The notes below the pieces were generated by a model. That model had not been told where the DNA came from, ran no database searches, and saw nothing but the letters and a program-made list of their open reading frames with translations. From an uncultured Phycisphaeraceae bacterium (GTDB lineage Bacteria; Planctomycetota; Phycisphaerae; Phycisphaerales; UBA1924): a stretch of 64,000 nucleotides of DNA. The translations under genes and the position numbers were made by a program. Positions 1-52,854 of this stretch are shown in pieces (within the stretch, counting starts at the first letter, position 1; every line of letters begins with the position of its first letter). The DNA is taken from the NCBI GenBank assembly GCA_942490855.1, contig CALNYS010000002.1, forward strand, positions 92,341 through 156,340. The letters run 5' to 3'.

Positions 1-215
1 GCGTCCCCGCTGGGGTGCATCGCGCGGTGGTGGGCGAGGAGGATCTTCGCGTCCTCCTGCTGCGACCCGCCCAGGGCGCACCCGAGGGAGTCATAGAGAA
101 AGAGCTTCGCCGTCTGGATCGCCTCCGGCGAGAGGTCCTCGTAGCGGAGCCCGCAGGCCCACTTGGCGAGGTCGTAGGAGATGAAGTTGTCCGTCTTGAA
201 GGTGCCGCTGGCCAT
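1..215 (-). CDS. MmgE/PrpD family protein (2-methylcitrate dehydratase-like), N-terminal fragment running off the window start
   Basis: Minus-strand translation from ATG at 215 reads MASGTFKTDNFISYDLAKWACGLRYEDLSPEAIQTAKLFLYDSLGCALGGSQQEDAK, a typical PrpD/MmgE N-terminus. GGAG lies upstream. The ORF is absent from the track because it has no stop inside the window. Confidence 0.7.
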   Translation of the reverse strand, partial: MASGTFKTDNFISYDLAKWACGLRYEDLSPEAIQTAKLFLYDSLGCALGGSQQEDAKILLAHHRAMHPSGD

Positions 216-945: not shown

Positions 946-1305
946 TCAGCGCTGGACGAACTCCGCGCCCGCGCACCACTGCTCCTCGGCCGTCTGCCCG
1001 GACCACACCACCCGCGCGGTGCGCATCAGCGGGACCTCGCCCGTCGGGGATTCCACGGTGATCTCGAGAACGTCGCCGACGCCCAGCTCGTGGGGCGTGT
1101 TCAGGCGCAGGCCGGTGCCGGAGAGATCGCACACCGTGACGGGGAAGGAGCACCCGACGTCGATCGGCTGGGGGCGCGTCTGCTGCACGCTCTTGGCGAT
1201 CCCGCCGAGGCTGTAGGCCGCCCGGTCGATGTGGCGTCGGTCCACGTCCTGCCAGAGGGCCGCGGCTTCCTGTTCGCTGAGGTGGCTGCTCTGAGGCGTA
1301 TCCAT
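946..1305 (-). CDS. PilZ domain protein (putative c-di-GMP receptor)
   Basis: 119 aa. The RxxxR motif (RHIDR) is followed by DxSxxG (DLSGTG), the two PilZ c-di-GMP binding motifs. GGAG lies upstream of the ATG. Confidence 0.75.
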   Translation of the reverse strand: MDTPQSSHLSEQEAAALWQDVDRRHIDRAAYSLGGIAKSVQQTRPQPIDVGCSFPVTVCDLSGTGLRLNTPHELGVGDVLEITVESPTGEVPLMRTARVVWSGQTAEEQWCAGAEFVQR

Positions 1306-4667: not shown

Positions 4668-5810
4668 TTACAGGTTGCGCACCACCTCGTTCGCCACGTC
4701 GATCGTCGAGTCGCCCTTGCCGCGACCCTTGACGTCGTACGTCGCGACCTTGCCTTCCTTGATGACCTTCGCGATGGCGGCTTCGAGCGCCTGCGCGTGG
4801 TCGGTCTCGTCGAGCCAGTCGAACATGAGCTTGACGGTCAGGAGCATGGCCATCGGGTTGACGACCTTCTGCCCGTCGTACTTGGGCGCCGAGCCGTGGG
4901 TGGGCTCGAAGACGGCGTAGTCGTCGCCGATGTTCGCGGCGCTCGCGAAGCCGAGGCCGCCGACGAGGCCGGCGCAGAGGTCCGAGAGGATGTCGCCGAA
5001 CATGTTCGACGCCACGAGGACCGAGTAGTCCTGCGGGTTCTTGATCATCCACATCATGATGGCGTCGATGTTCGTCTCCCACGCCTCGATGCCCGGGTAG
5101 TCCTTCGCGACCTCGCGGAACGTGCGGGTCATCAGGCCGCCCGTGGCGCGCACGACGTTGGGCTTCTCGGCGAGGCTGACGCTCTTGCGCCCTTCCTTCT
5201 TCGCGAGCTCGAACGCCTGGCGGCAGATCGACTCGCACCCCTGGCGGCTCATGACGCGCGTGGAGATCGCGACGTTCTCGAGGCCCTTGTCGTACCAGCG
5301 CTTCATGCGCGCCGGGTGACCCCACTCGGGGTTGGCGAGCGCGTCGGCGAGCTCCTTGGGCATGGGGTCCCACTCGATGCCGCCGTAGAGGCCCTCGGTG
5401 TTCTCACGGAAGACGACGAGGTCGATGTCGTCGCCCAGCTTGTTGAGCGGGTTGCCGGGGTACGCCTTGCAGGGGCGCATGTTGGTGTGGAGGTTAAAGA
5501 GCTGGCGGAGCTTGACGATCGGGCTGAAGTAGTCGAGCCCGGTGTCCTTGAGCTCGGGCACGAGTTCCTCGGCGGCCTCTTCGCGCGGCTTGGAGGTGAT
5601 GGCGCCGAAGAGCGCGCAGTCCGTCTTCTTGAGGATCTCGATGGTGCGGTCGGGGAGCGGGTTGCCCTCCTTGCACCAGAACTCCCAGCCGATGTCCGCC
5701 GGGACGTACTCCGCGTCGAACTTCATGGCGTCGAGCACGATCTTGGCGGCTTCCATGACGTCGTTGCCGACGCCGTCGCCGGGCATCCAGGCGATGCTGT
5801 ATTTGGACAT
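4668..5810 (-). CDS. Isocitrate/isopropylmalate dehydrogenase family protein (beta-decarboxylating dehydrogenase)
   Basis: The ATG at 5810 gives [18 protein letters not shown].... Family motifs present: [27 protein letters not shown]. Substrate (isocitrate, homoisocitrate, isopropylmalate or tartrate) cannot be assigned by eye. Confidence 0.85.
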
Positions 5811-9132: not shown

Positions 9133-10158
9133 TCATTCGACCGCGTACAGATCCAGGTACGCGCCGCTCGCGTTGTTGCCCATCCCGAAGACGAGGCGCC
9201 CGCGCTTCGCGTCGTAGAAGCCCATCCCGCTCGCGCGGATCTCCACGTCGCCGGCGTCGCAGTCGCTCCACCCCGCCGTCTCGCCGCTCAAGTCGAGAGC
9301 GACGAGGTCCTGCACGGCGCTGCGCCCGTCGGGCGTCCCGCCCGTGACGTACAGGCGTCGCGACGACGGATCGAACGCCCACTGCGGGTTGCGCCGCCCC
9401 ACGGGCGTGGCGTCTTCGTCCGTCAGGCGTTCCCACGCCGGCGGGTCCGCGGAGAGATCCAGCGCCCACGCGTCGCGCGCGCACACGAGCCCCTGCGCGG
9501 GGATCGCGCCGCTGAACACCACGAGGCGATCGCCCGCGCCGTCTACCGCGTACGCGAACCCGTAGCGCTCGCCCGGCCCGCGCTCGACGTCGAGCTGTTC
9601 CCACATCGCGACGCCGTCCTCAAGGCGCATCGACCACACGTCGTCGTACATCGCCCGCTGCGACACCCCGCCAAAGAGGAGGTAGCGGTCCCGCGCCGCG
9701 TCGTACACGAACCCGTGCAGCGCCCGCGCGGGCGGGGCGTTGCGCTGCTCGATCGTCTCGAACACGAGGGCGTCATCGACAAGCCGCGCGCGCACGAGAT
9801 CGTTGTTCACCTCGAACCCGGCGCCGTAGCCCCCCCACAACAGGAAGCCACCGCCGCCGGCCGCGGCCGCACGCTTCGACCCGCCCCCCGCCGGAGCGTC
9901 GCCGCGCGTTTCGAGCGGCGTCCACGCGCCGTCCGATAGCGACACCGCCCACGCGTCGCTCAGCGGCGCCAGCTGCGGCTGGTACCCGCTCCCGGCATAG
10001 AACACCGCGCGGTCCCGCGCCGGGTCCACGAGCACGGCGGCGTGCTCGCGTCCGATCGGGCCGTCGCCGGCTTCCCATTCGACCCATTCCGTCGCGCGCT
10101 GCGCGGCGCAGAGGGGCACGAAGAGCAGTGAGATAACGATCGCGTTTAATCTGCGCAC
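9133..10158 (-). CDS. Secreted Kelch-repeat beta-propeller protein
   Basis: GTG start preceded by AGGAGA. Signal peptide (M)RRLNAIVISLLFVPLCAA. Repeated units resemble Kelch motifs (e.g. RxxHxxV.D....R..(V/L)FGG...........D(V/L)W). Confidence 0.7.
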   Translation of the reverse strand: MRRLNAIVISLLFVPLCAAQRATEWVEWEAGDGPIGREHAAVLVDPARDRAVFYAGSGYQPQLAPLSDAWAVSLSDGAWTPLETRGDAPAGGGSKRAAAAGGGGFLLWGGYGAGFEVNNDLVRARLVDDALVFETIEQRNAPPARALHGFVYDAARDRYLLFGGVSQRAMYDDVWSMRLEDGVAMWEQLDVERGPGERYGFAYAVDGAGDRLVVFSGAIPAQGLVCARDAWALDLSADPPAWERLTDEDATPVGRRNPQWAFDPSSRRLYVTGGTPDGRSAVQDLVALDLSGETAGWSDCDAGDVEIRASGMGFYDAKRGRLVFGMGNNASGAYLDLYAVE

Positions 10159-10224: not shown

Positions 10225-12177
10225 TCACCCGCCCGCGGCGAGCTTCCGCTTGACGACGTTCTCGCTGCCGCCGGCCGCGACGAGCTCCTGCGCCGCGGGG
10301 CCCAGCGCCGGGAACCGGAACGTGCGCTCGCCGAGGGTGATCTCCGAGTCCTCGAAGTTCACGACGAGCGTCTCGCCGGGGATCGTCAGCGCGTCCGAGC
10401 CGCCGTTCGCCTCGCGCAGCGCGGCGACGAGGTCGGGGCACACGATGCAGATGAACCCGTTGTTGAACGCGTTGCGGGTGTAGGTGGCGCTGAAGGTCTC
10501 GGCGATCACCAGCTGGATGCCGAAGCTCGCCAGCGCTGTCGCCGCCTGCTCGCGCGACGACCCAGACCCGAAGTTCGCGCCCCCGATAATGATGTCGCCC
10601 GACTGCGCGATCTGCTGGAACGAGGGGTCGTAGTTGAGCATGGCGTACTGGCCCTGCTGCTCGAGCGTGATGTCGTCGCGGTAGGTGACGTCCTTGCCGT
10701 AGATGCCGTCGGTGTTGAGGTTGTCCTGCGGGAGGAAGAGGGATCGCCCCTCCATGCGCGCCGGGAAGCCGTCGATGATGGTGGTCTTCCCCGCCGCCGC
10801 GGCCGGCCGCGGCTGGACGACGCACCCGCCTAGCGAGCCGTCGCCCTCGTCGAGCGCCATCGGGGAGGCGATGTGCCCGCGGATGGCGCTCTCGGCGACC
10901 ACGGCGGGGCTGGCGAGGTAGCACTGGGCGTCGCGGCTGCCCATGCGTCCTTTGAAGTTGCGGTTGGTGGCGCTGATGCCGACCTCGCCGGCTTCGAGCA
11001 GCCCGGTGCCGAGGCCGATGCAGGCGCCGCAGCCGGGCGGGAGGGCGCGGGCGCCGGCGTTGATCAGCACGTCCCAGTCGCCGCTGGCCTTGGCCTTGGC
11101 CTCGACCTCGCTCGACGCGGCGGCGACGTAGAAGTCCACGCCCGTCGCGACGCGTCGCCCGCCGTCTTTGGAGAACACGCGTGCGGCCGCGGCGAAGTCG
11201 GACTCGCGGGCGTTGACGCAGCTCATGAGGTACGCCTTGTTGATGCGCACGTTGCGGGCTTCCATGTCGGACACGCTGGTCATGTCCTTGACGGTGTCGG
11301 GCCCGCTGACGTGGGGCGCGACCTTGGAGAGGTCGAGCGTCAGCTCCTTGGCGTAGTAGGCGTCCTTGTCGGGAGCCCACTCGGCGCGCGCTTCCCACCA
11401 CTCGTTGACGTCCTCGGCGGTGTAGCGGGGTTCGTCGCGGGCGCTGAAGACCGCGGCGCGTTCGAGGAGGAACGCGAGGAGCGTCTCGTCGAAGGGGAAC
11501 ATGCCCGCGAGGGCGCCCCACTCGGTGGTCATGTTGGAGATGGTCAGTCGCTCGTCCATGCTGAGCGTCGCGACGCCGGGGCCGACGAACTCGATGACGC
11601 AGTTGAGCACCTCGTCGTTATTGAAGTGCCCGCACAGGGCGATGATGACGTCCTTGCCCACGGCGCCTTCGCGCAGCTCGCCGGTGAGGGTGACCTTCAC
11701 GACGTCGGGCACCTGCCACCACGTTTCGCCGGTGGCCCAGATGGCGGCGGCGTCGGTGCGCACGACGGGGGTGCCCACGGCCGCGGCGGCGCCGTAGATG
11801 TTCGAGTGGGAATCGGACCCGACCACAAGGGAGCCGGGGGTGACGTAGCCCTCTTCGATCATGACCTGGTGGGCGATGCCGCGCCCGGGCGGGTAGTAGT
11901 CGATCCCGTTGTCGCGGGCGAACTTCTCGATCTTGGCGTACTTGCCGAGGTTCTCGGGGGTGGTGTTCTGGATGTCGTGGTCCATGCCGAAGACGGGCTG
12001 CTTCGGGTCGCGGACTTTGGTCGCGCCGATGGACTGAAACTTGGGGATGACCGCGCCGGTGTTGTCGTGGGTCATCACGTGCTTGGGGCGGATGGCGACG
12101 ATGTCGCCGGAGCGGACGTCGCCGGTGGAACCCACGGCGTAGCGCTGGACGATCTTTTCGATGGAGGTCTGGGGCAT
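10225..12177 (-). CDS. Aconitase-family hydratase with fused large and small subunit domains (homoaconitase / 3-isopropylmalate dehydratase-like)
   Basis: The ATG at 12177 gives MPQTSIEKIVQRY.... Motifs present: VMTHDNTG, GSDSHS, CGACIGLG, ATNRNFKGRMG. A C-terminal swivel (LeuD-like) domain lies in the same ORF. Confidence 0.85.
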   Translation of the reverse strand: MPQTSIEKIVQRYAVGSTGDVRSGDIVAIRPKHVMTHDNTGAVIPKFQSIGATKVRDPKQPVFGMDHDIQNTTPENLGKYAKIEKFARDNGIDYYPPGRGIAHQVMIEEGYVTPGSLVVGSDSHSNIYGAAAAVGTPVVRTDAAAIWATGETWWQVPDVVKVTLTGELREGAVGKDVIIALCGHFNNDEVLNCVIEFVGPGVATLSMDERLTISNMTTEWGALAGMFPFDETLLAFLLERAAVFSARDEPRYTAEDVNEWWEARAEWAPDKDAYYAKELTLDLSKVAPHVSGPDTVKDMTSVSDMEARNVRINKAYLMSCVNARESDFAAAARVFSKDGGRRVATGVDFYVAAASSEVEAKAKASGDWDVLINAGARALPPGCGACIGLGTGLLEAGEVGISATNRNFKGRMGSRDAQCYLASPAVVAESAIRGHIASPMALDEGDGSLGGCVVQPRPAAAAGKTTIIDGFPARMEGRSLFLPQDNLNTDGIYGKDVTYRDDITLEQQGQYAMLNYDPSFQQIAQSGDIIIGGANFGSGSSREQAATALASFGIQLVIAETFSATYTRNAFNNGFICIVCPDLVAALREANGGSDALTIPGETLVVNFEDSEITLGERTFRFPALGPAAQELVAAGGSENVVKRKLAAGG

Positions 12178-12267
12178 GCGAGCAGCGTAGCGGGTCCGGC
12201 CCTTTTCTCCCACGCCACCAGCGCGGGGATACGGGGAACAGCACGGACGCGTGCGCTGTTCAATAGG

Positions 12268-12310
12268 GAGCCCTCACCCCGGCCCTCTCCCCGGGGGAGA
12301 GGGAGGTGGG
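12268..12310. repeat. REP-like palindromic intergenic element, copy 1
   Basis: GAGCCCTCACCCCGGCCCTCTCCCCGGGGGAGAGGGAGGTGGG. It contains the inverted repeat CCCTCTCCCC/GGGGGAGAGGG. Confidence 0.8.
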
Positions 12311-12338
12311 CGCGGCTCGCGGCGCTCGCTTGTTACTC

Positions 12339-12382
12339 GGCCCCTCACCCCAGCCCTCTCCCTGTGGGAGAGGGGGCGGAGG
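12339..12382. repeat. REP-like palindromic intergenic element, copy 2
   Basis: GGCCCCTCACCCCAGCCCTCTCCCTGTGGGAGAGGGGGCGGAGG. Same orientation as copy 1, with a few substitutions. Confidence 0.8.
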
Positions 12383-12386
12383 ACGC

Positions 12387-12752
12387 ATGAAGATCCAGAT
12401 CAAACGCATCTATGAAGACCCGGCGCGGGGGGATGGTTTCCGGGCGTTGGTGGACCGGCTGTGGCCGCGGGGCGTGTCGAAGGACACAGCGGAGCTCGAC
12501 GCGTGGGCGAAGGACGTCGCGCCGTCATCGGAGCTGCGGAAGTCGTGCCCGCGCGACCCGGAGCACTTCCCGGAGTTCCGGAAGCTGTACCTGAAGGAGA
12601 TCAGTGCGAACGGCGATGCGATCGACGCGCTGCTGGCGGAGGTGCGCAAGAGCCGGAAGACCACGCTGACGCTGCTGTACGCGTCGCGGGAGGCGGAGCT
12701 GAATCACGCGGTGGTTTTGAAGGAGGGGATTGAGCGGCGTGTGGGGCGCTAA
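12387..12752 (+). CDS. DUF488 family protein
   Basis: The ATG at 12387 gives MKIQIKRIYEDPARGDGFRALVDRLWPRGVSKDTAELDAWAKDVAPSSELRK.., the characteristic DUF488 N-terminus. The upstream part of ORF 12306.. is only a translation of the REP element. Confidence 0.8.
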   Translation: MKIQIKRIYEDPARGDGFRALVDRLWPRGVSKDTAELDAWAKDVAPSSELRKSCPRDPEHFPEFRKLYLKEISANGDAIDALLAEVRKSRKTTLTLLYASREAELNHAVVLKEGIERRVGR

Positions 12753-13756
12753 GCGGAGTCGCCGGGATTGCTCAGCCAGAGTTTCCAGAGTGACTGGAAC
12801 TTCTTGCTCTTGACCCCGCGGGAAAACTGCAGCGTCGCGGTCCCCTGCGGGCCTACGAGTCTCGCGTTGACGAGCTGCAACTTGTTGCGACCGGCGCGCC
12901 TCGCGGTCAGGTAGATACACGCGTCGCCACGGCGCCATTCTGCGCCGAGCGCCTCGCGGACTCGCCCGGCTTGAAGCCTGTAGGGCCACGCGCCAGCGGT
13001 CATCATCCCAAGCAGCAAAGCCGAGATGGCGATGAGTGCGACCCAGCCGTACGCCCCAGAGACGGAACTCTGGACATCCCAGGTGTACGAGGTTGCGTAG
13101 TCGAAGAGCTCGATCGCTACGAGCAGGAGGACGCTCAAGGCTATCGCTCCCAAGAAGTACGGTATGAGAAAGAACAGCAGCGAGTCACGCTGACCGAACA
13201 TCTGTCGGCGGGGTTCGTTCATTGGCTCCCGTGCGGTCTCTATCGCCTCCCTGAGCGCTTTGGGTGCGTAGACATCAAACCCGCCGGCCCCGCAACGATC
13301 GAGCATGGCGCAGGTCTCTGCCCACGCCTGCTCGCTCTCGGCTCGCTGGACAGCGGCACGGCGAAAACAAAACACGGGGCCACGCAGCGAGAGATAGATC
13401 GCATCAAAGAGCGTTTCGCGCTCGAGCGATTTCGATCTCTTCACGTGTCGCCGCTCCGCGATGAGAATCGGCCCGAACATGGTCCCACAGAGCCCGACGG
13501 TGAGGGGCAACGAGAACCAGAGGGGCAGGGGTCCGGATGGTCGCCCATATAGGACCGCGACCGGGACCGCGATCAACAGGAAGACGATGAGTGGCCCGGC
13601 GTAGAAAACGAACGCACGGGCGCCGGAGATCGTTGGCGTCGGCGGCTCCGGTAGGTCGCTCTCGTCCCACCAGTACACGCGCCCGTTGCTCTTTGGTGCG
13701 GGGGTATTCAGCCGTGCGCCCTCAGCTCTTCTTCCCGAGGTACTTCGCGATATCAA
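12749..13756 (-). CDS. Hypothetical four-TM membrane protein with relaxed codon bias
   Basis: 335-aa ORF beginning at a TTG that overlaps the upstream HD-like gene by 35 nt. An alternative GTG start at 13678 is possible. Two pairs of TM helices plus soluble segments. Third-codon positions are less GC-biased than in neighbouring genes. Confidence 0.55.
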   Translation of the reverse strand: MISRSTSGRRAEGARLNTPAPKSNGRVYWWDESDLPEPPTPTISGARAFVFYAGPLIVFLLIAVPVAVLYGRPSGPLPLWFSLPLTVGLCGTMFGPILIAERRHVKRSKSLERETLFDAIYLSLRGPVFCFRRAAVQRAESEQAWAETCAMLDRCGAGGFDVYAPKALREAIETAREPMNEPRRQMFGQRDSLLFFLIPYFLGAIALSVLLLVAIELFDYATSYTWDVQSSVSGAYGWVALIAISALLLGMMTAGAWPYRLQAGRVREALGAEWRRGDACIYLTARRAGRNKLQLVNARLVGPQGTATLQFSRGVKSKKFQSLWKLWLSNPGDSA

Positions 13757-14291
13757 AGTCCACGAAGTCGGCGTGGTGGAAGATGATGGACTCGATGGAG
13801 CGCTGGACTTTGTCGCCCTCGTGGGAGTGGGTGGCGACGATGTGCATCACTTCGGGGGGGATGCCGTGCTTGTAGCACATGGCGACGCCGGAGAAGGGGT
13901 GGCGGAGCATGTCGCCGTAGTGGCCCTTGACGAGTTTGCCGTCGACCTTGTCGAACTCGAGGGGCTTTCCGACGTCGGCGAGGAGGGAGCCGGCGAGGAG
14001 GTGGTCGCGGTTGATGGGGATGCGGTCGGCGAAGATCTTGGTGAGGACGTCGGCGATCGCCATGCACTGCTGGGCGCAGGAGCGGAGGTGCTCGATGTAG
14101 CGGAGGTCGATGTCGCCGGCGAGGAGGGTGAAGGGGACGGCGCGGAGCTCGTCGAAGGTCCAGCCCTTGCCGCCGGCTCCGGTGGTGAGGGCTTCGGACC
14201 AGACGGCGGCGACGTTGTCGCGCAGCTGGGCGTCCTGGATGTCCATCACTTCGGGCAGGAGCTCGGCGATCTGTTCGGTCGTGAAACTCAT
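13722..14291 (-). CDS. Divergent HD-superfamily-like protein
   Basis: 189 aa. It contains His/Asp-rich motifs (YIEHLRS, LLADVGKP, ATHSHEGD, FHHADFVDF). Where canonical HD proteins read HD.GK, this protein reads ADVGK. Confidence 0.55.
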   Translation of the reverse strand: MSFTTEQIAELLPEVMDIQDAQLRDNVAAVWSEALTTGAGGKGWTFDELRAVPFTLLAGDIDLRYIEHLRSCAQQCMAIADVLTKIFADRIPINRDHLLAGSLLADVGKPLEFDKVDGKLVKGHYGDMLRHPFSGVAMCYKHGIPPEVMHIVATHSHEGDKVQRSIESIIFHHADFVDFDIAKYLGKKS

Positions 14292-14312
14292 GGCGTCGTT
14301 CTTCCCTGTTCT

Positions 14313-14858
14313 CTAGCTGTTTTGCTCGACCCACTCGCGGCGGAGAAGGCCGTAGTAGACGTCGTCTTCGTACTGGCCCCACTTCAGGGCCTGCTCACGC
14401 AGCACGCCCTCGCGGGTGAAGCCTAGCTTTTCGAGGATGTGCGCGGAGCGTTCGTTGCGGGCCCAGCAGGTCGCGTAGACGCGGTGGAGCCCGACGCTCT
14501 CGAAGGCGAAGCGGAGGAGCTCGGTCGCGGCTTCGAAGGCGAAGCCGTGCCCGCGGTGGTCCTTGCCCACGATGTACCCGATGTCGCCGATGTTGTGGGT
14601 GGGGTCGCGGTTGAGCATGACGTCGCCGACGATGGCGCTGGTGTCTTTGCGGACGAGGAGGAAGGCGTACTTCTTCTCTTCGTCGGCGTCGGCGCCGGTC
14701 TTGGTCACCCACTCCCGCGCCTTTTCGAGCGTGTAGGGGCTCGGGATGCCGTAGCCGCCCCAGGAGGACTCGGGGTCGTCGCAGAAGGCGACGATGGCCT
14801 CGGCGTCGTCGAGGGTCGGGGTGCGCATGAGGAGGCGCTGGGTGTGGAGTTCGATCAT
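14313..14858 (-). CDS. GNAT family N-acetyltransferase (RimJ/RimL-like)
   Basis: The ATG at 14858 gives MIELHTQRLLMRTPTLDDAEAIVAF.... It contains the motif GYIVGKDHRGHGFAFEA. A 4-nt ATGA overlap joins it to the upstream GNAT gene. Confidence 0.85.
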   Translation of the reverse strand: MIELHTQRLLMRTPTLDDAEAIVAFCDDPESSWGGYGIPSPYTLEKAREWVTKTGADADEEKKYAFLLVRKDTSAIVGDVMLNRDPTHNIGDIGYIVGKDHRGHGFAFEAATELLRFAFESVGLHRVYATCWARNERSAHILEKLGFTREGVLREQALKWGQYEDDVYYGLLRREWVEQNS

Positions 14859-15409
14859 CGCTGGATCCCCGCGGCCCATTCGTCGCGCGTGAGTGTGAAG
14901 CCCTCGGCGTCGAAGAACTCGCCGTCTTTTTCGCATTGGTTAGGCAGGACGCCGACGGAGCGCATGCCGATCTTCTCAAGTACGCGAGACGAGGCGGGGT
15001 TTCGCGTCATCGCGTGTGCGCAGAGTTCGGCGAACCCGAGCGTCGCGAAGCCGTAGGCGAGCAGGGCGCTGCAGGCTTCGGTCGCGTAGCCCCTCCCCCA
15101 CCACGGGCGCCCGACGACGTAGCCGAACTCGGCCTCGTCGCGCCCCTTGATGTTGAGGAAGCCGATCGATCCGATGAGCGTGCTCGTTTCGCTGAGATCG
15201 ATGAGGAGGGTCAGCGCGTCGCCGGCGGCGCGGAGGCGTTCGAAACGCGCGATTGCTTCGGCGGCGTCCGCTTCGGTGTAGGGGTAAGGGATTGAGCGGG
15301 TGAAGGCGGCGATGTCGCGGTCGGAGAAGACGGCGGGCATCGCGGGGATGTCCGCCTCGCTCGGGGCGCGGAGGACGAGGCGCTCGGTCTCGAGTCGGGG
15401 GAGGTTCAT
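14855..15409 (-). CDS. GNAT family N-acetyltransferase (RimJ/RimL-like)
   Basis: The ATG at 15409 gives MNLPRLETERLVLRAPSEADIPAM.... It contains the motif GYVVGRPWWGRGYATEA. A 4-nt overlap joins it to the lyase-like gene upstream. Confidence 0.85.
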   Translation of the reverse strand: MNLPRLETERLVLRAPSEADIPAMPAVFSDRDIAAFTRSIPYPYTEADAAEAIARFERLRAAGDALTLLIDLSETSTLIGSIGFLNIKGRDEAEFGYVVGRPWWGRGYATEACSALLAYGFATLGFAELCAHAMTRNPASSRVLEKIGMRSVGVLPNQCEKDGEFFDAEGFTLTRDEWAAGIQR

Positions 15410-16170
15410 TGGTTGAGCGTGCGGTCGGCGGGGCCGTCGTACTCGTGGGCGCCGGGGATGACGCGGCGCATGGGCTTCATGCGTTCGCGTTCTTCGGTGG
15501 CGTGGGCGACGAGGCCGGGGACGCGGGCGATCATGAAGAGGCCGTTCATGACGGAGGGGTCGAAGCCGAGGTCGGCGAGGATGGCGCCGATCGCGCCGTC
15601 GACGTTGATGGGCAGGGCCTTGCCGCTGGCGGCGAATGCGGATTCGACGGCGCGGGCGGCGGCGACGTGGGGGCCGGTCGCGCCGGCTTCCTCGGCGAGC
15701 TCGAACAAGCGCGCCGTGCGCGGGTCGGCGGTGTGGATGCGGTGCCCGAAGCCGCTCATGCGTTCGCCGCGGGTTTTCATGTCGGCGAGCTCGGCGTTGG
15801 CGGCCTCGCTGAGGTCGCCGCCGCGGGCGATGATCGCGCCGAGCTGGCGGGCGCACTTCTCGATGGCGCCGCCGTGGAAGTTGTTGATGGAGAGGATGCC
15901 GGCGCTGACGGCCTGGGAGAGCGAGGCGCCGGTGGAGGCCACGGTGCGGGCGGAGAGGACGCTGGGGGGCGTGGCGCCGTGGTCGATGCTGGAGACGACG
16001 ATGGCGTCCATCAGCTTGCCGACAGGTTCGCTGGGCATTTCACCGCGGAGGATGAGGTAGACGGCGGCGCCGAAGGAGACGCGTCCCATGAGGTCGGCGA
16101 TGTCGTAGCCGCGGACGCGGACCTCGTTGGGTCGGATGTTGGTGATGGCGGTGGGCCAGGTGTCGGGCAT
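15406..16170 (-). CDS. Short citrate-synthase-fold protein, citryl-CoA lyase-like
   Basis: 254 aa and lacks the large N-terminal citrate synthase domain. It contains the citrate synthase family signature MSGFGHRIHTADPR and later the catalytic-region motif ARVPGLVAH. Confidence 0.75.
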   Translation of the reverse strand: MPDTWPTAITNIRPNEVRVRGYDIADLMGRVSFGAAVYLILRGEMPSEPVGKLMDAIVVSSIDHGATPPSVLSARTVASTGASLSQAVSAGILSINNFHGGAIEKCARQLGAIIARGGDLSEAANAELADMKTRGERMSGFGHRIHTADPRTARLFELAEEAGATGPHVAAARAVESAFAASGKALPINVDGAIGAILADLGFDPSVMNGLFMIARVPGLVAHATEERERMKPMRRVIPGAHEYDGPADRTLNQ

Positions 16171-16242
16171 GGGTGTGCTCTGTCGTGTGTCAGCGGGGGA
16201 AACGCGGCGCTAGAAATACGCTTGAAAATCAGAGGAATACGG

Positions 16243-16284
16243 AGCCCTCACCCCGGCCCTCTCCCCGGGGGAGAGGGGGCGGAT
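16243..16284. repeat. REP-like palindromic intergenic element, copy 3
   Basis: AGCCCTCACCCCGGCCCTCTCCCCGGGGGAGAGGGGGCGGAT, nearly identical to copies 1 and 2. It lies in the 116-nt gap between the CoA-ligase alpha gene and the lyase-like gene. Confidence 0.8.
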
Positions 16285-16286
16285 TC

Positions 16287-17204
16287 TTAGGCCTTGGCTC
16301 CGATGGTTTCGAGGACGGCGGCGGGGAGGTCGCCGAAGGAATCGACGACGGTTGCGCCGGCTTTCGTGAGCGCTTCGACCTTGCCGGCGTGGGTTCCGGT
16401 GTTGCCCTCGATGATCGCGCCGGCGTGGCTGAAGCGGGTGCCTTCTTTGGCGACCTTGCCGCCGATGTAGGCGACGACGGGCTTGGTGACGCGCCCGGCC
16501 TGCATCAGCTCGGCGAGGTCTTCTTCCTGGGAGCCGCCGATCTCGCCGAAGATCGTGATGACTTCGGTGTCGGGGTCGTCTTGGAATCGCAGGGCGATGT
16601 CGGGGATGCGCAGCCCGAGGACGGAGTCGCCGCCGACGTGGCAGAGGGTGGAGAGGCCGACGCCCTGCCGGCAGAGGTAGTAGCCGCAGGAGCTGGTCAT
16701 GCCGCCCGAGCGGGAGATGATGCCGACGCTGCCGGGGGTGAACCACTCGCGGGCGCTGGCGGCTTTCCCGCCGATCATGCCCATGACGGCTTTGCCGGGC
16801 GAGAGCACGCCGAGGGTGTTGGGGCCGATGAATTCGGCGCCGTGCGTGTTAGCAGCCTTGGCGATCGCCATGGCGTCCCAGACGGGGACGCGGTCGGGGA
16901 CGAGGAGCAGGAGCTTGACGCCGGCCTCGATGGCTTCGATCGCGGCGTGCTTGATGAGGCGCGCGGGGACGAAGAGGACGGAGATGTCTACGGGCCCGGC
17001 GTGCTCGGCGTTGGAGTGGGCCATCGCCTCGGAGACGTGGTCCCAGACGGGGAGGCCTTCGACCTCCTGCCCGCCCTTGCCAGGGGTGCAGCCGCCGATG
17101 ATGCGGGTGCCGAACTCGCGCATGAGTCGTGTGCGGGCGCGCCCTTCGCGCCCGGTGATGCCCTGGACGATGACGCGTTTGGTTTCGTCGATGAGAATCG
17201 CCAT
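16287..17204 (-). CDS. Succinyl-CoA synthetase alpha-like CoA-ligase subunit (citryl-CoA synthetase small-subunit-like)
   Basis: The ATG at 17204 gives MAILIDETKRVIVQGITGREG.... Motifs present: SRSGGMT and the phosphohistidine loop FSHAGAI. The start overlaps the stop of the upstream gene (TGATG). Confidence 0.85.
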   Translation of the reverse strand: MAILIDETKRVIVQGITGREGRARTRLMREFGTRIIGGCTPGKGGQEVEGLPVWDHVSEAMAHSNAEHAGPVDISVLFVPARLIKHAAIEAIEAGVKLLLLVPDRVPVWDAMAIAKAANTHGAEFIGPNTLGVLSPGKAVMGMIGGKAASAREWFTPGSVGIISRSGGMTSSCGYYLCRQGVGLSTLCHVGGDSVLGLRIPDIALRFQDDPDTEVITIFGEIGGSQEEDLAELMQAGRVTKPVVAYIGGKVAKEGTRFSHAGAIIEGNTGTHAGKVEALTKAGATVVDSFGDLPAAVLETIGAKA

Positions 17205-18763
17205 CAGGCCGCCTCCTCGCTGACGGCGAGCTCGTTCTCGAGCCCGTCGATGGGGATGTCTACGAAGACCGCGGGGACGCCGGCGCGGATGCATTCGACC
17301 TCGAGGGCGATCCAGTCGGAGTCGCGCTTGGTCGCGTCATCGGGGTCGATGCCGAGGGTCAGGCGCTCGTCCTGGACGCGGAGGAGATCGCCGGCGAGTT
17401 TCAGGACGGTTTGGGTTTGCCCGGCGTCGAGGTTGGCGGCGTCGATCCAGACCTCGCCGGTCCAGTCGTCGCCCAGGGCGACGTCGCAGAGCTTCACGCC
17501 GTCGCCGTCGACGAACGCGGGGACGATGCGGTCCGTGGGTTCCCACACGCTGCCGGCGGCGGCGTCAACGAGTTCGGTGAAGCGCTGGCCGATGGCGCGG
17601 GGCGGGTCGTCTTTCTTGTAGCCCTCGACGGGCGCGGGGAGGTCTTTGCAGGCGTCCTGGAGGATCTCGACGGCGCGGTCCTCGCTGTTCCCGCCGAGGC
17701 GGATGAGGGCGGGGACGGAGAGGTGCAGCTCGTTGAAGGCCTTGGCGAGCCCGTAGGCGGACCAGTACTGCTCCTGGCTGGCGACGCCCGAGCCCGAGCC
17801 GAAGTACCCGACGAGGCCGGGCTGGCTGAGGATGATGCGGGCGGCGGCGTAGACCTTCGCAGCGCTGGGGTTGCCCGAGGTGTCGGTGAAGTTGGCGGGG
17901 GTGAACCCGGCTTGTGAGACGGCGTCCATGCTCATCATGGAGCCGCCGCCGCCGGCGCCGTGGAAGCCGATGACCTTTTCGCCCGTCTCGCCGGTGCGCG
18001 GGAGGACGGCGAAGTAGAACGTGCCGCGGTGGTCGCGCTGCTCGAGGTCGTAGGCGATCTCTTCGAGGCGCGTGGGCGGGTGGTCGAGCTCGCGGGCGAT
18101 GCGGATGCCCAGCTCGGGGTGACGGAAGACGGCGTAGTCGTCGATGGTCACGCGGCAGTCGGCGGCGAGGACGCGCCCGTCGGTGGTGGTGACGAGCGGG
18201 TTGACCTCCATCGAGCGGGCTTCGACCTCGCGCGCGGTCGTGGCGATCTGCTGGATCGCTTCGGCGACGGCGGCGCGGAGGGATTCGGCGATGGGCGAGG
18301 ACGCCATGAGGGCCGTGAGCGCCGCGGCGTCGATGCCGGTCTCGCTGTCGACGGGGAGGCGGTGGACGGAGTCGGCGCGGTCTTCGATGCCCGAGCCGCC
18401 GCCGAAGGCGACGAGCATGACGGGGGCGCGCTCGCCGTCGTCGATGGTCTGGCTGACGAAGATCTCTTCGGCGATGTCGATCTTCTCTTCGACGAGGACG
18501 GTCTCGACGGGGAAGGCGCCGACGCTCATCCCGAGCAGGCGCGACGCGTGCTCGCGGGCCTGCTCCGGGGTGTCGGCGAACGCGACGCCGCCGAGCGCGG
18601 CGCGTCCGGTGGTCCAGGCCTGGATCTTGAGAACGACGGGGCCGCCGATCTCGGCAGCCGCGGCGTACGCCATGTCGGCGCTCCCGGCGACGGCGCCTCT
18701 GGGCACCGCCAGCCCGCGCTCGCGGAGGAGCTTCTTGCCCTCGTGTTCGTGCAGTCTCGCCAC
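17204..18763 (-). CDS. ATP-grasp succinyl-CoA synthetase beta-like subunit with a C-terminal extension of about 130 aa (citryl-CoA synthetase large-subunit-like)
   Basis: Proposed GTG start at 18763, preceded by GGAGAGGAGA, giving (M)ARLHEHEGKKLLRERGLAVPRG, which matches the canonical SucC N-terminus (M.LHEYQ.K). The ORF is 519 aa, compared with roughly 390 aa for typical SucC. Confidence 0.8.
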   Translation of the reverse strand: MARLHEHEGKKLLRERGLAVPRGAVAGSADMAYAAAAEIGGPVVLKIQAWTTGRAALGGVAFADTPEQAREHASRLLGMSVGAFPVETVLVEEKIDIAEEIFVSQTIDDGERAPVMLVAFGGGSGIEDRADSVHRLPVDSETGIDAAALTALMASSPIAESLRAAVAEAIQQIATTAREVEARSMEVNPLVTTTDGRVLAADCRVTIDDYAVFRHPELGIRIARELDHPPTRLEEIAYDLEQRDHRGTFYFAVLPRTGETGEKVIGFHGAGGGGSMMSMDAVSQAGFTPANFTDTSGNPSAAKVYAAARIILSQPGLVGYFGSGSGVASQEQYWSAYGLAKAFNELHLSVPALIRLGGNSEDRAVEILQDACKDLPAPVEGYKKDDPPRAIGQRFTELVDAAAGSVWEPTDRIVPAFVDGDGVKLCDVALGDDWTGEVWIDAANLDAGQTQTVLKLAGDLLRVQDERLTLGIDPDDATKRDSDWIALEVECIRAGVPAVFVDIPIDGLENELAVSEEAA

Positions 18764-18835
18764 GCCGGTCTCCTCTCCAGCGGGCGCTGGCCCGCGGATC
18801 GGCGATGGTAGTGCCCCCCTATTGGCCCGCAAGAC

Positions 18836-19687
18836 TCAGGACGCGCCGGCTTCGTGTTTCTCTGCGGTCCCGGCCCATTCGCCGGAACACACGACGGCCG
18901 TGGGGCCGGTCAGTCGGACGCGTCCGGCGGCGTCGTCCCACTCGGCCTCGAGTGTGCCGCCGGGCATGCGGACGGAGGCGAAGCGGTCGAGGCGCCCGGT
19001 GAGGACGCCCGCGACGACCACGGCGCAGGCGCCGGTGCCGCAGGCGAGGGTCATCCCCGCCCCGCGTTCCCAGGTGCGGACGGTCGCGGAGTCGCGCGCC
19101 GTGATCCGCGTCACGTGGAGGTTCATCCCCTCGGGGAAGGCTCGGTGGTTCTCGACGCGGGGGCCGACGACGCCGAGCTCGACCCCCGCGGGGTCCTCCT
19201 CGATCATCGCGACCATGTGGGGGTTGCCCATCGAGACGAAGACGGCGGGGAGCCCGGCGACCTGGTGCTCGAGCCCGAGCGTCCCCGTCTCGTCGAGCTC
19301 TGCCGCGAGGACGGGGACCTCCCCGAGCGCGACGACCGGCTCGCCCATGTCGAGACGGACGACGCCGCGCCCGAGGCGTTCGGCTTCGAGGGTGCGCCCG
19401 CCCACGTTGATGCGGAGTTGGTCGTCGCTCCAGCCGAGGGCGGCGGCGCGTTCGGCGACGCAGCGGGCGCCGTTGCCGCAGACGCCGCCGTCGCGTCCGT
19501 CGGCGTTGTAGATGGTCATGGAGACCTGGGCCCCGTGCTCGCTTGTGCGGGAGATGGCGATGACGCCGTCGGCGCCGACGCCGGTGCGCCGGTCGCACAG
19601 CGCGCGCACGATCGCCCCGCTCAGCTCGACGGGTTCGTCGAAGAGCAGGTAGTCGTTCCCGCAGCCGTGCATCTTGGTGAAGCGCAC
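18836..19687 (-). CDS. dapF: Diaminopimelate epimerase
   Basis: (M)RFTKMHGCGNDYLLFD, the catalytic-Cys motif GNGARC, and the second motif ACGTGACA. Confidence 0.92.
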   Translation of the reverse strand: MRFTKMHGCGNDYLLFDEPVELSGAIVRALCDRRTGVGADGVIAISRTSEHGAQVSMTIYNADGRDGGVCGNGARCVAERAAALGWSDDQLRINVGGRTLEAERLGRGVVRLDMGEPVVALGEVPVLAAELDETGTLGLEHQVAGLPAVFVSMGNPHMVAMIEEDPAGVELGVVGPRVENHRAFPEGMNLHVTRITARDSATVRTWERGAGMTLACGTGACAVVVAGVLTGRLDRFASVRMPGGTLEAEWDDAAGRVRLTGPTAVVCSGEWAGTAEKHEAGAS

Positions 19688-19708
19688 GGCGGGATCGTAC
19701 CGGATCGC

Positions 19709-20401
19709 TTATCGCCGGCGCTGGAACCCGAGCGCGCCGGCGAGGCCGAAGAGCGCGATCGGTCCGGGCGCGGGGAGAACGACGAAGGAGAGGTTGTCGG
19801 CGGACGCGTCGTTGAAGGCGTTCCCGTCGAGGTTGCGGAGGAACGTGAGTTCGACCACCGCTTCGCGCGCGCCGACGGGGATGAGGTCGTCGGTGGTGAA
19901 GAAGCTGAGCCCGACGGCGCTGGCGATCCCGCGGATCACGGTCCCGGTCGAGGCGCTGCCGATCTCGGACAGCGTGTTGTCGAGGAACGTGACGCTGAAC
20001 AGCGCGCCGTCGAGGTCGGCGTTCGCGGCGCCGAGCCAGCCGCTGAGCTCGAAGCTGATCTGCCCGGCGTCGATCTGCCCCGCGAGCGGGAAGAGGTTGA
20101 AGCGTTGTTCGGCGACGGAGGTGTCGGACCCGCCGCCGGTGAAGTAGTTGGCTCCTCGGGCGACCGGGCCTGGGTCGGCGATCTGGAGCGCTTCGGGCGT
20201 CGAGCCGTAGGCGGCGACGGTGAAGAGCCCGTCGGTGACGGACCAGCCGGGGATCGGGACGACCTGCCCGGAGCCGCCCGGGCCTGCTTCGGCGTTGTGA
20301 TTGTTCAGAAGGTTCTCGCCAAGGATGATCCCGCCCGGCGCCGCGGCAGCGAGCGCGCAGAGGGGAACAGCCGCAAGAACGGCGTGGGTACAGATCTTCA
20401 T
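19709..20401 (-). CDS. PEP-CTERM sorting-domain secreted protein
   Basis: The ATG at 20401 gives the signal peptide MKICTHAVLAAVPLCALAAAA. The C-terminus VLPAPGPIALFGLAGALGFQRRR shows the PEP-CTERM architecture: VPxP, a TM helix, then a basic tail. Confidence 0.8.
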   Translation of the reverse strand: MKICTHAVLAAVPLCALAAAAPGGIILGENLLNNHNAEAGPGGSGQVVPIPGWSVTDGLFTVAAYGSTPEALQIADPGPVARGANYFTGGGSDTSVAEQRFNLFPLAGQIDAGQISFELSGWLGAANADLDGALFSVTFLDNTLSEIGSASTGTVIRGIASAVGLSFFTTDDLIPVGAREAVVELTFLRNLDGNAFNDASADNLSFVVLPAPGPIALFGLAGALGFQRRR

Positions 20402-20531
20402 CTCTCGAACTCCTCCGTGGCGCCGGCGGGTGTGCAGCCCGATCGGCGTCAACTACACCATACCGCGGAAGTCGCGCCGGACCAACGCAAGAGTGCAGAG
20501 AGATTGGGTTGTGCGGTCTGTGCGGGTTGCG

Positions 20532-21398
20532 CTAGCGCCCGAGCGCCGCGATCTGCCCGGCGAGGGCGGCGTTGGATTTGACCAGCGCGATATTGGACGT
20601 GAGCGTCGCTCCGCCGGAGATCTCGTGGAGGGCGGCGAGGACCGCGGGGGTCACGGCGCGGCCGGCGGCGCCCGCGCTGTGCGCGCGCTTCGTGGCCTGC
20701 TTGAGCCACTTGGCCCAGTCGTTCTCGGGCAGCTCGTCGGTTTCTGGGACGGGGTTGCAGACGAGCACCCCCCTGCCGGTGCGGTTGGTCTCGCTGCGGC
20801 AGTAGGCGGCGAGTTCGGCGGGGTCGTCGAAGCGGGCGTCCACGCCGGCGTCGGATTCGCGGCGGTAGAAGGCGGGGAAGGAATCGGTGCGGTAGCCGAC
20901 GACGGGGACGCCCAGGGTCTCGAGGGCCTCGCGGGTGGAGACGACGTCGAGGATGGACTTCACGCCCGAAGCGACGACGGCGACGGGGAAGCGGGTGAGG
21001 GCGGTGAGGTCGGAGGAGATGTCGAGGCGCTCGGCGTAGCCGCGGTGGACGCCGCCGATGCCGCCGGTGGCGAAGACCCCCACGCCGGCCGCGGCCGCGA
21101 GTTCCATCGTGGCGCTGACGGTGGTGGCCCCCGATTGTGCGCGCGCGAGGGCGAGGCCGAGGTTGGCGGTGTTGAGTTTGGGGAGATTGTCGATCGCGAG
21201 CATCTGGGCGAGCTCGTCGTCGGTCATGCCGACGATGGGCTGGCCATCCAGGACGCCGACGAGCGCCGGGTGGGCGCCGGCGTCGGCGACGATGCGCGAG
21301 AGTTCGTGGTGGAGCGGGAGCGCGGCGTCGGCGGGGACGCCGTGGGCGAGGAGGGTGGTTTCGAGGGCGACGGAGTGTGGGGTGGTGCGGCGGAGCAT
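20532..21398 (-). CDS. psuG: Pseudouridine-5'-phosphate glycosidase
   Basis: ALETTLLAHGVP, GATTVSATMELAA, GVFATGGIGGVHRG, VVASGVKSILD: the IndA/PsuG family pattern. Confidence 0.88.
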   Translation of the reverse strand: MLRRTTPHSVALETTLLAHGVPADAALPLHHELSRIVADAGAHPALVGVLDGQPIVGMTDDELAQMLAIDNLPKLNTANLGLALARAQSGATTVSATMELAAAAGVGVFATGGIGGVHRGYAERLDISSDLTALTRFPVAVVASGVKSILDVVSTREALETLGVPVVGYRTDSFPAFYRRESDAGVDARFDDPAELAAYCRSETNRTGRGVLVCNPVPETDELPENDWAKWLKQATKRAHSAGAAGRAVTPAVLAALHEISGGATLTSNIALVKSNAALAGQIAALGR

Positions 21399-26677: not shown

Positions 26678-26928
26678 GTGAACGATCTCCTCCTGGCCCT
26701 CCCGGACCATTGGCGACACGATCCCTCACACTCTCGGCGAGCGTTTGAAGGCGTGCGACTCAGCGGGGACGCTGCGACATCGTCCGATCGACGTCGGCGT
26801 CCGTATACCTGACCGTACACAACGCCTCGGCGGTGGACCAGAGCGATCTGGATGATTTGTGACGATCAGGATGGTCCGCGTTCCCGGACGTCCCCCGGGG
26901 GCCGCTACCGGCTACCATCCGACCGGCG

Positions 26929-30346: not shown

Positions 30347-30401
30347 CGTGCGCGCACCGCGCCGAGTTCGCGCGCACAATGAACGAAACACGGAGGCGAG
30401 C

Positions 30402-32393
<1,992 letters not shown>

Positions 32394-40978: not shown

Positions 40979-43435
<2,457 letters not shown>

Positions 43436-50000: not shown

Positions 50001-50073
50001 CGAACCCGGCCTGATCGGGCCGATAGACCTCTATCTTCCCGCCCATCGACTCACTCGTGAAGGGGACCGACCC

Positions 50074-50874: not shown

Positions 50875-50877
50875 CCT

Positions 50878-52833: not shown

Positions 52834-52854
52834 GACGCCCGCACGGATTTCATC

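Follow-up and report, generated by a model that had tools for sequence, protein, structure and literature searches.

An ATP-citrate-lyase-like ligase–lyase gene cluster conserved in Phycisphaerae and their relatives, with a possible role in homocitrate chemistry

In Hydrogenobacter thermophilus, citrate is cleaved in two steps by a citryl-CoA synthetase (CCS, the CcsAB proteins) and a separate citryl-CoA lyase (CCL). Surveys of genes for the reductive tricarboxylic acid (rTCA) cycle find CCS and CCL confined to the Aquificaceae, and CCS/CCL genes, like those for ATP-citrate lyase (ACL), serve as rTCA markers in metagenomes. Both steps run near equilibrium (-5.9 kJ/mol for CCS and -2.1 kJ/mol for CCL; PMC13147460), so that either direction is feasible. 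Here we describe a locus of related layout in a 64,000-nucleotide stretch of DNA (hereafter the window; positions are counted from its first letter) from an uncultured Phycisphaeraceae bacterium (assembly GCA_942490855.1, contig CALNYS010000002.1). It encodes a two-subunit ligase (beta and alpha) of the succinyl-CoA synthetase (SCS) kind, a CCL-family protein, and a set of partner enzymes. The cluster is indicative of an organic-acid pathway not yet described, and speaks neither for CO2 fixation nor for acetyl supply to the acetyltransferases encoded within it; the ligase–lyase unit may act on homocitrate.

The original prediction had read six consecutive minus-strand open reading frames (ORFs), 13722 to 18763, as a citrate-cleavage trio chained to two GNAT acetyltransferases and an HD-like protein. 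All six are present at these coordinates, and the public protein collection holds exact matches to the six proteins (519, 305, 254, 184, 181, and 189 aa); because these sequences are verbatim, independent gene callers must have picked the same six starts. Window proteins were assigned to domains with the Pfam and NCBIfam profile libraries and their curated cut-offs. This confirmed a SucC-like ATP-grasp protein (beta, 17204..18763), a SucD-like protein with the FSHAGA loop (alpha, 16287..17204; CoA_binding, Ligase_CoA, and Succ_CoA_lig), a short protein of the citrate synthase (CS) fold with GFGHRIH..DPR (CCL, 15406..16170), two GNATs (14855..15409 and 14313..14858), and an HD-fold protein in which AD replaces the HD dyad (13722..14291). 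The cluster continues past this segment on the same strand with three genes that had been overlooked: a homoaconitase-type hydro-lyase with fused large and small subunits (HACN, 10225..12177; 650 aa from MPQTSIEK), an isocitrate-dehydrogenase-like (IDH-family) beta-decarboxylating dehydrogenase (4668..5810; 380 aa from MSKYSIAW), and the N-terminus of a PrpD/MmgE-family protein, of which the window edge leaves the first 71 codons (1..215, recognized by tblastn).

Read directly, the beta/alpha junction is TGATG, a 1-nt overlap of stop and start, and the CCL/GNAT1 and GNAT1/GNAT2 junctions are both ATGA, with 4-nt overlaps, all as had been predicted. GNAT2 and HD are 21 nt apart, alpha and CCL 116 nt, and the upstream gene dapF and beta 72 nt. 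A scan of 12000–20600 gave no promoter-like sites and no convincing terminator.

Such a system had been thought unusual for a planctomycete, which it is not. At least 513 stretches in species-representative genomes encode relatives of the beta family, and the lyase orthologues in Phycisphaerae metagenome-assembled genomes (MAGs) are already called “citryl-CoA lyase” by NCBI. The beta family gave 5299 matches at E ≤ 1e-10. Its top 120 relatives are 57–85% identical and, one fragment excepted, 500–585 aa long; those with a source name bear the label of a Phycisphaerae or Planctomycetota MAG or a generic one, succinyl-CoA synthetase beta subunit. For the lyase, 237 clusters match at E ≤ 1e-30 in a library of 50%-identity representatives.

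Gene order was compared in one genome per GTDB species, searched with two family-specific peptide patterns; the best 80 loci of the at least 513 stretches were retained (L-numbers below denote loci of relatives). They are mainly from Phycisphaerales, with some labelled Verrucomicrobiota/Chthoniobacterales, Isosphaeraceae, Gemmataceae, and Pirellulales. The ligase–lyase machine is conserved across Phycisphaerae, other Planctomycetota, and Verrucomicrobiota, and because it is so widespread it does not represent an unusual acquisition by one planctomycete. Since the CCL-family gene sits in a widespread heterotrophic operon, “citryl-CoA lyase” labels in Planctomycetota and Verrucomicrobiota are not evidence of CO2 fixation.

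Neighbors were identified by tblastn with the window proteins and counted where they kept the strand and order of the cluster within 10 kb. Downstream of beta lie alpha (64 of 70 loci), CCL (56/66), HD (42/60), HACN (25/51), the IDH-family gene (18/50), and the PrpD-like gene (9/44). The predicted gene order is thus kept in relatives, and the arrangement is not due to chance. The co-directional cluster can be written beta–alpha–CCL–(0–2 GNAT)–HD–homoaconitase–IDH-like–PrpD-like, and its commonest complete layout is the compact seven-gene form without GNATs, found in 10 loci (e.g., L001). All seven conserved genes are present in the window, spaced out by insertions, and two close relatives (L085 and L086, with 85% and 75% beta identity) have the same long-range order with all seven genes. 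The constant partners of the ligase–lyase are the HD, homoaconitase, IDH-family, and PrpD-like proteins, not the GNATs. The unit tolerates the unlinking of beta: in the complete Phycisphaeraceae genome CP060234.1 (L002 and L083), beta lies about 0.4 Mb round the circle from alpha–CCL–GNAT–HD. No further recurrent gene family was found inside or beside the clusters of the 80 loci.

Alpha and CCL form a single uninterrupted ORF in 29 of 59 relatives, joined by a conserved linker (..RSRSLMTEAERKAVWTTAITKI) in which ...SLM(T/S)... is apparently a relic of the CCL start codon. The fused loci are L011, L028, L031, L033, L034, L036, L037, L040, L042, L044, L045, L049, L050, L057, L059, L062, L065, L067, L069, L070, L072, L073, L075, L076, and L078–L082, and a 575-aa fusion (P0375) also stands as a cluster representative in the 50%-identity library. 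Because of this fusion, ligase and lyase can be said to work together, physically coupled: beta, alpha, and CCL make up one ATP-citrate-lyase-like ligase–lyase machine, whose alpha and CCL parts form an AclA-like polypeptide in half of the relatives. The two genes of the window are separated by a spacer (16171..16286, minus strand) that is filled by a G+C-rich 20-mer resembling repetitive extragenic palindromes (REP-like), GGAGAGGGCCGGGGTGAGGG, preceded by a hairpin (CCCTCTCCCC/GGGGAGAGGG). The 20-mer occurs three times in the window on the minus strand (12271–12290, 12342–12361, and 16245–16264) vs. 0.06 expected, and every copy is intergenic, within spacers of the cluster. The REP-bearing spacer is missing in L085, where alpha and CCL overlap by 4 nt.

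The lyase belongs genuinely to the citryl-CoA lyase family, and its predicted grouping with CCL holds. It covers only positions 163–355 of the 357 in the Pfam Citrate_synt profile, the N-terminal CS domain being missing, and it passes the cut-offs of two NCBIfam citryl-CoA lyase subfamilies (NF004869, 261 vs. 212 bits; NF004866, 253 vs. 245). Among solved structures, H. thermophilus CCL (6hxp; 178 bits, E 2e-51, 41.9% identity) is by far the best match, whereas ACL lyase modules and citrate synthases score only about 70–78 bits (72 for the ACL CCL module). Residues H64, H99, H143, R151, D191, F212, R216, and R236 correspond to H229, H264, H305, R314, D362, F383, R387, and R407 of Escherichia coli GltA, the eight active-site residues of citrate synthase (list from PMC13147460).

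The ligase is a different matter. By sequence it is SCS-derived, nearer to succinyl-CoA synthetase than to CcsAB or ACL. For beta (Pfam ATP-grasp_2, 114 bits), the order of solved relatives is Thermus SCS beta (3ufx_B, 173 bits), CcsA (6hxq_B, 115), and AclB (90); identity is 32% with Thermus SCS beta and 29% each with CcsA and E. coli SucC. Foldseek with the AlphaFold2 (AF2) model (mean predicted local distance difference test score, pLDDT, 88.8) gave the same order, SCS beta before CcsA before ACLY. Alpha scores best against archaeal SCS alpha (2yv2, 258 bits), ahead of CcsB (6hxq_A, 155) and AclA (116), and its phosphohistidine loop, FSHAGAIIEG, aligns to MGHAGAII of solved SCS alpha subunits. 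The original prediction of a Hydrogenobacter-type CcsAB plus Ccl architecture is thus borne out for the lyase, which is of the CCL family, and fails for the ligase, which is SCS-derived and lacks the CcsA loop motifs.

Neither subunit falls within orthodox SucCD, however, which agrees with the earlier expectation. Beta stays below the SucC cut-offs (NF001913, 204 vs. 370 bits; TIGR01016, 180 vs. 376) and alpha below those for SucD (TIGR01019, 271 vs. 353; NF004230, 269 vs. 336), and both fall even farther short of the malate-CoA ligase (Mtk) models. The substrate loop was compared in an alignment of the beta family with CcsA, Thermus SCS beta, and E. coli SucC. The loop reads GSGSGVASQEQ in the beta family, where it is invariant in 33 members, vs. 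GGTANNT in CcsA and GGI[VT]R in SCS. A second motif is IRLGGN (RL) in the family and VRRNGP (RR) in CcsA. The Asn and Thr of CcsA GGxANxT and the second Arg of VRR correspond to the human ACLY citrate ligands N346, T348, and R379; these citrate-ligand-type motifs, ANxT and RR, are present in CcsA and not conserved in the beta family. Other invariant motifs are GAGGGGSMM and NFTDTSGNPS, and NFTD..GNP is shared with CcsA and absent from SCS. The GVAS tip of the loop (beta residues 326–329) is the only internal segment of the model with pLDDT < 50, which suggests that the loop may be mobile and ordered by its ligand.

Beta also carries a domain of its own. The SucC-like ATP-grasp and substrate domain (aa 1–375) is followed by a family-specific folded extension of about 140 aa (approximately aa 376–519), which is less conserved than the core (41% vs. 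70% mean identity). The C-terminal 148 aa have no Pfam match, and Foldseek alignments end near residue 420, leaving the last ~100 residues unaligned.

One could take the ligase for no more than a divergent succinyl-CoA (or malyl-CoA) synthetase, with the CCL-like protein as an unrelated neighbor. SCS is indeed the closest characterized relative of both subunits in sequence and fold. We nevertheless consider this explanation the least probable of all and barely credible, given the fusion of alpha and CCL in 29 of 59 species, the scores of both subunits below the SucC, SucD, and Mtk cut-offs, and the replacement of the SCS loop GGI[VT]R.

What the machine acts on may be sought in its partners. 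The hydro-lyase matches the fungal-type homoaconitase equivalog TIGR00139 at 728 bits (719 for the L001 orthologue; cut-off 530), and, like that orthologue, falls short of every aconitase and isopropylmalate-isomerase model; the scores are 353 vs. 612 for aconitase PRK07229, 254 vs. 719 for acon_putative, and 294 vs. 611 for LEU2. We also considered an Aquifex-type aconitase for this 650-aa protein and rejected it (TIGR01342, 254 vs. 719).

The IDH-family enzyme (Pfam Iso_dh, 278 bits; 76% identical to the in-operon counterpart of L001) has the methanogen homoisocitrate dehydrogenase AksF2 as its best NCBIfam model, at 340 bits and under the cut-off of 540. Among solved structures, it scores 230 bits with isocitrate dehydrogenase (ICDH) and 215 bits with homoisocitrate dehydrogenase (HICDH), both of Thermus thermophilus. 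Its substrate-recognition segment reads YFSPIV[KRG]LRQ in 16 of 16 cluster enzymes, vs. S-x-N-V-x-L-R in ICDHs and A-I-R-Y-L-R in T. thermophilus HICDH. ICDHs use the Asn of this segment (E. coli Asn115) for the gamma-carboxylate; the cluster enzyme has Ile there, as does T. thermophilus HICDH, and Val at the position of HICDH Arg85. The R85V variant of the Thermus enzyme is said (we found no supporting paper) to lose isocitrate activity and keep that on homoisocitrate.

The PrpD-like protein starts with MASGTFKTDNF and is 79% identical (tblastn) to residues 2–64 of the in-operon PrpD-like protein of L001. The PrpD-like protein reaches 104 bits vs. a PrpD cut-off of 950, and among solved structures the L001 orthologue scores 95 bits with cis-aconitate decarboxylases, 77 with IDS epimerase, and 58 with PrpD.

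Taken together, we favor an ACL-like enzyme acting on the homocitrate/2-oxoglutarate pair (homocitrate and homocitryl-CoA) and feeding a module from 2-oxoglutarate to 2-oxoadipate, a reading to which we give a probability of roughly 40%. It is preferred because the hydro-lyase scores as a homoaconitase, the dehydrogenase lacks the ICDH signature, and the ligase lacks the citrate ligands of ACL and CCS. In general terms, the ligase–lyase unit would interconvert acetyl-CoA plus a 2-oxo-dicarboxylate with a hydroxy-tricarboxylate via the CoA thioester of the latter. In the condensing direction, the lyase would join acetyl-CoA and 2-oxoglutarate to homocitryl-CoA, and homocitrate would then be set free by the ligase, whose phosphohistidine would serve to form ATP from ADP and Pi. 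The PrpD-like protein would then dehydrate homocitrate to cis-homoaconitate, HACN would hydrate this to homoisocitrate, and the IDH-like enzyme would convert homoisocitrate to 2-oxoadipate by oxidative decarboxylation. The whole unit could be a split, energy-conserving substitute for the usual DRE-TIM homocitrate synthase. No DRE-TIM synthase (LysS/Lys20/NifV/AksA type) was found in or beside the clusters of the 80 loci, which the scheme would explain because the ligase–lyase takes its place. The homocitrate scheme gives a role to every gene but HD and the GNATs.

Two neighbors are weak hints of a lysine/aminoadipate link. The first is dapF (18836..19687, minus strand; TIGR00652, 225 bits vs. 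cut-off 115), a diaminopimelate epimerase gene whose membership in the cluster is uncertain. It is the upstream neighbor of beta in 10 loci, and occupies this position in L003, L005, L006, L019, L055, L059, L064, L085, and L086. The second is a saccharopine-dehydrogenase-family gene (Sacchrp_dh_NADP plus Sacchrp_dh_C) that lies in or near the cluster in four loci (L057, 15811–17013; L034, 18403–19623; L036, 4571–5809; L073, 20044–21330).

Several observations weigh against the homocitrate scheme. The lyase retains all eight canonical CS residues, oxaloacetate binders included, exactly as in H. thermophilus CCL. We know of no CS-fold enzyme that uses 2-oxoglutarate. The score of the IDH-family enzyme stays under every NCBIfam cut-off (340 vs. 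540), and its best solved relative is an ICDH. The PrpD-like protein is equally distant from all characterized members of its family. Within 10 kb, linkage extends to HACN in only about half of the loci, to IDH in about a third, and to PrpD in about a fifth. The clusters contain no recurrent genes leading from aminoadipate to lysine (LysX/Z/Y/J/K, Lys2/9/1), and dapF implies the diaminopimelate (DAP) route to lysine, so that the scheme would give 2-oxoadipate no evident use.

The same lyase residues lend weight to the main alternative, which is true citrate chemistry. The machine would then be a genuine citryl-CoA synthetase/lyase, and the PrpD-, homoaconitase-, and IDH-like proteins would serve as citrate dehydratase, cis-aconitate hydratase, and isocitrate dehydrogenase. 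It could run forward, from citrate to acetyl-CoA and oxaloacetate (e.g., after reductive carboxylation of 2-oxoglutarate from amino-acid catabolism), or in reverse as an ATP-conserving citrate synthase, and near-equilibrium thermodynamics permit both. Consistent with this are membership of the CCL family with 42% identity to a characterized CCL, the eight CS/oxaloacetate-binding residues, weak Citrate_bind matches (Pfam) in beta and many orthologues, the NFTD..GNP motif common to beta and CcsA and not found in SCS, and putative glutamate-yielding hut genes upstream in about 13 loci. We still regard it as unlikely: the hydro-lyase is a homoaconitase by score and lies well under every aconitase cut-off, the dehydrogenase lacks the ICDH gamma-carboxylate Asn, and the ligase lacks the ANxT and RR motifs of CcsA, at the positions that bind citrate in ACLY. 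In addition, the hosts look like aerobic heterotrophs. The window contains genes for an AMP-forming acetyl-CoA synthetase (acs, 30348–32393, plus strand) and an sdhC/sdhA/sdhB-like succinate dehydrogenase cluster (49939–53682, plus strand), which give the host at least part of an oxidative TCA cycle as well as an ordinary way to make acetyl-CoA. The 64-kb window and the 80 loci of ~20 kb showed no rTCA marker, 2-oxoglutarate:ferredoxin oxidoreductase and fumarate reductase included.

Alternatively, the substrate pair could be another one (e.g., 2-methylcitrate/propionyl-CoA, citramalate/pyruvate, or a longer homo(n)citrate), and the pathway one of catabolism or secondary metabolism, where the PrpD-like protein might even be a decarboxylase of the cis-aconitate-decarboxylase type. 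That protein is in fact nearest to cis-aconitate decarboxylases (95 bits vs. 58 for PrpD), the substrate loop of the ligase is unlike that of every characterized subfamily, the dehydrogenase matches no equivalog, and some loci have CoA-transferase, tryptophanase-family, and saccharopine-dehydrogenase-family genes inserted. On the other hand, the homoaconitase equivalog match is specific and strong, and no methylisocitrate lyase or other pathway-specific partner recurs. Another pair of this kind is distinctly unlikely in our judgment.

Some of these inserted and adjacent genes can be described further. In L057, an inserted butyryl-CoA:acetate CoA-transferase-family gene (11600–12880) separates beta from alpha. 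L010 (14663–16090), L060 (15089–16516), L017, and L036 have a tryptophanase/tyrosine-phenol-lyase-family gene (NF009709, 655 bits) directly after HD; in L010 and L060 it thus sits between HD and homoaconitase. Putative hutHUI genes (histidine ammonia-lyase, urocanase, and imidazolonepropionase) occur in about 13 loci (e.g., L009, L025, L026, and L058), 2.4–7.9 kb upstream of beta and on the opposite strand; their products would yield glutamate, and hence 2-oxoglutarate. As core members of the cluster, the hutHUI, tryptophanase, saccharopine dehydrogenase, and CoA-transferase neighbors were rejected; they are found in only 2–13 loci and are taken to be lineage-specific. A glutaryl-CoA dehydrogenase beside Verrucomicrobiota loci was likewise considered and not confirmed (FadE, 264 vs. 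600; Acd, 203 vs. 470).

The two GNATs had given the original prediction its functional idea, a citrate-cleaving enzyme supplying local acetyl-CoA to a pair of translationally coupled acetyltransferases for an acetylation pathway. Both belong to Acetyltransf_3 (120.7 bits for GNAT1 and 116 bits for GNAT2) and are 30% identical to each other; their predicted RimJ/L type stands at the level of this domain and not at that of the RimJ and RimL equivalogs (RimJ NF008072, 29 and 52 vs. 190; RimL, 39 vs. 184). The ATGA overlaps of CCL, GNAT1, and GNAT2 in the window fit such a role, as do a CCL/GNAT 4-nt overlap in CP060234.1 and the fact that 20 of 46 loci have at least one GNAT lying between CCL and HD (one in 16, two in 4); the GNAT–GNAT pair is also found in the close relative L085. 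The remaining 26 loci, which include all compact seven-gene operons, have none. Copy number thus varies from 0 to 2, and across species the GNATs are only 29–53% identical to those of the window vs. 61–84% for flanking genes. Acetyl-CoA would hardly be limiting enough in a heterotroph to call for a private source, and acs is present in the window. The GNATs are lineage-variable add-ons, not the purpose of the system, and a dedicated acetyl supply is very improbable.

The HD protein, in contrast to the GNATs, is a constant member of the cluster and its most conserved one, with 2108 relatives, 75–96% identity among the top 120, and 64–84% across loci. It matches Pfam HD (37.5 bits) and the HDIG model TIGR00277 (34.7 bits). 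The HD dyad reads AD, as had been noted, and A105 and D106 do not vary in any of 24 orthologues, so that the H...HD...D metal motif of the HD type is broken at the dyad. H68, H131, H155, E158, H172, H173, and D175 are invariant as well, and the invariant set also includes Cys. A search with its AF2 model (pLDDT 87.7) returned only generic HD folds (best, YhaM with TM 0.64), none of them specific enough to assign a function. Our best guess is a tightly co-evolving accessory or regulatory subunit.

The window has some further features. HD and homoaconitase are separated by a DUF488 gene (12387–12752, plus strand) and an unannotated, membrane-like ORF of ~320 aa (12749–13756, minus strand). This pair recurs in L085, together with an additional nucleotidyltransferase/HepT toxin–antitoxin pair at the same spot, and DUF488 is also found in L003. 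A PilZ-domain gene (946–1305, minus strand) lies directly upstream of the PrpD-like gene, an order shared by L086. Genes for FG-GAP, Kelch, and dockerin repeat proteins are unusually dense (5932–7638, 9133–10158, 21494–23224, 25322–26719, 32459–33733, and 40979–43435), and two of this type are inserted between the homoaconitase and IDH genes.

We found no paper on this operon, on homocitryl-CoA, or on an association of CCL with homoaconitase; in the literature, CCL in Phycisphaerae appears only in listings. If homocitrate is the substrate, the lyase would be the first CS-fold enzyme to use 2-oxoglutarate, the condensation would be a Claisen condensation that conserves ATP, and the PrpD-like protein would become a concrete candidate for the homocitrate-dehydration step. 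The ACL architecture would then have arisen from SCS a second time, independently, which bears on the proposed path from CCL to ACL to citrate synthase. More fully, and as a tentative proposal that we think rather more doubtful than not, bacteria of the Planctomycetes–Verrucomicrobia–Chlamydiae (PVC) group would make or cleave homocitrate by means of a CS-fold lyase and an SCS-derived ligase. This “ATP-homocitrate lyase,” evolved independently and often fused in the manner of AclA, would stand in for the universal DRE-TIM synthase and save the energy of the thioester in the form of ATP. Its product would pass to a PrpD-type dehydratase, a fungal-type homoaconitase, and a new HICDH, with the AD-variant HD protein as an essential fourth subunit or regulator. 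The locus matters for annotation practice as well as for our view of how enzymes that cleave or synthesize citrate evolved, with the substrate being inferred.

Among known systems, CcsAB plus Ccl of H. thermophilus (6hxq and 6hxp) has the same composition of an ATP-grasp large subunit, a phosphohistidine small subunit, and a short CS-fold lyase. The window lyase is a clear homologue with its catalytic residues retained, and beta has the NFTD..GNP motif of CcsA. Unlike CcsAB, the window ligase is nearer to SCS, is without GGTANNT and RR, and has an extra C-terminal domain of ~140 aa in beta; the operon adds homoaconitase, IDH-like, PrpD-like, and HD proteins, and its hosts are heterotrophic PVC bacteria rather than Aquificaceae. 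The AclAB enzymes of Chlorobium limicola (6hxj) and Methanothrix (6hxi) are matched in layout by the 29 of 59 relatives that have a separate beta (AclB) and a fused alpha–CCL (AclA), and presumably, by analogy, in chemistry, which would proceed through phosphohistidine, acyl-phosphate, and CoA thioester to retro-Claisen cleavage. However, likeness in sequence is far below that to SCS and CCL (AclB, 90 bits; ACL CCL module, 72 vs. 178 bits for H. thermophilus CCL), and in the window alpha and CCL are separate genes split by the REP-bearing spacer. The alpha–CCL fusion looks like one independent of that in AclA. SucCD, the nearest characterized relatives of both subunits, share the fold, the phosphohistidine loop, and the GEIGG motif, whereas the window family has a replaced substrate loop, a C-terminal extension, and an obligatory and often fused lyase partner.

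Two pathways also invite comparison. Like the first half of the alpha-aminoadipate pathway to lysine and the 2-oxoacid elongation of methanogens, the operon combines a fungal-type fused homoaconitase with an HICDH-like dehydrogenase. It differs in that an ACL-like ligase–lyase stands where the DRE-TIM homocitrate synthase would be, that downstream lysine genes are absent and dapF, of the DAP route, adjoins, and that a PrpD-family protein is available as a candidate for homocitrate dehydration, a step that, to our knowledge, fungal homoaconitases do not perform. The 2-methylcitrate cycle (PrpC, PrpD, aconitase, and PrpB) likewise joins a CS-fold condensation to an Fe–S-independent PrpD-type dehydratase and an aconitase-family hydratase. 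In the cluster, however, an IDH-type decarboxylating dehydrogenase takes the place of the PrpB lyase, and condensation and thioester cleavage fall to separate enzymes. Set against all of these, what appears to be new is an enzyme of the ACL/CCS–CCL type whose ligase has another origin and carries an added domain, whose partners are new, and whose substrate probably differs.

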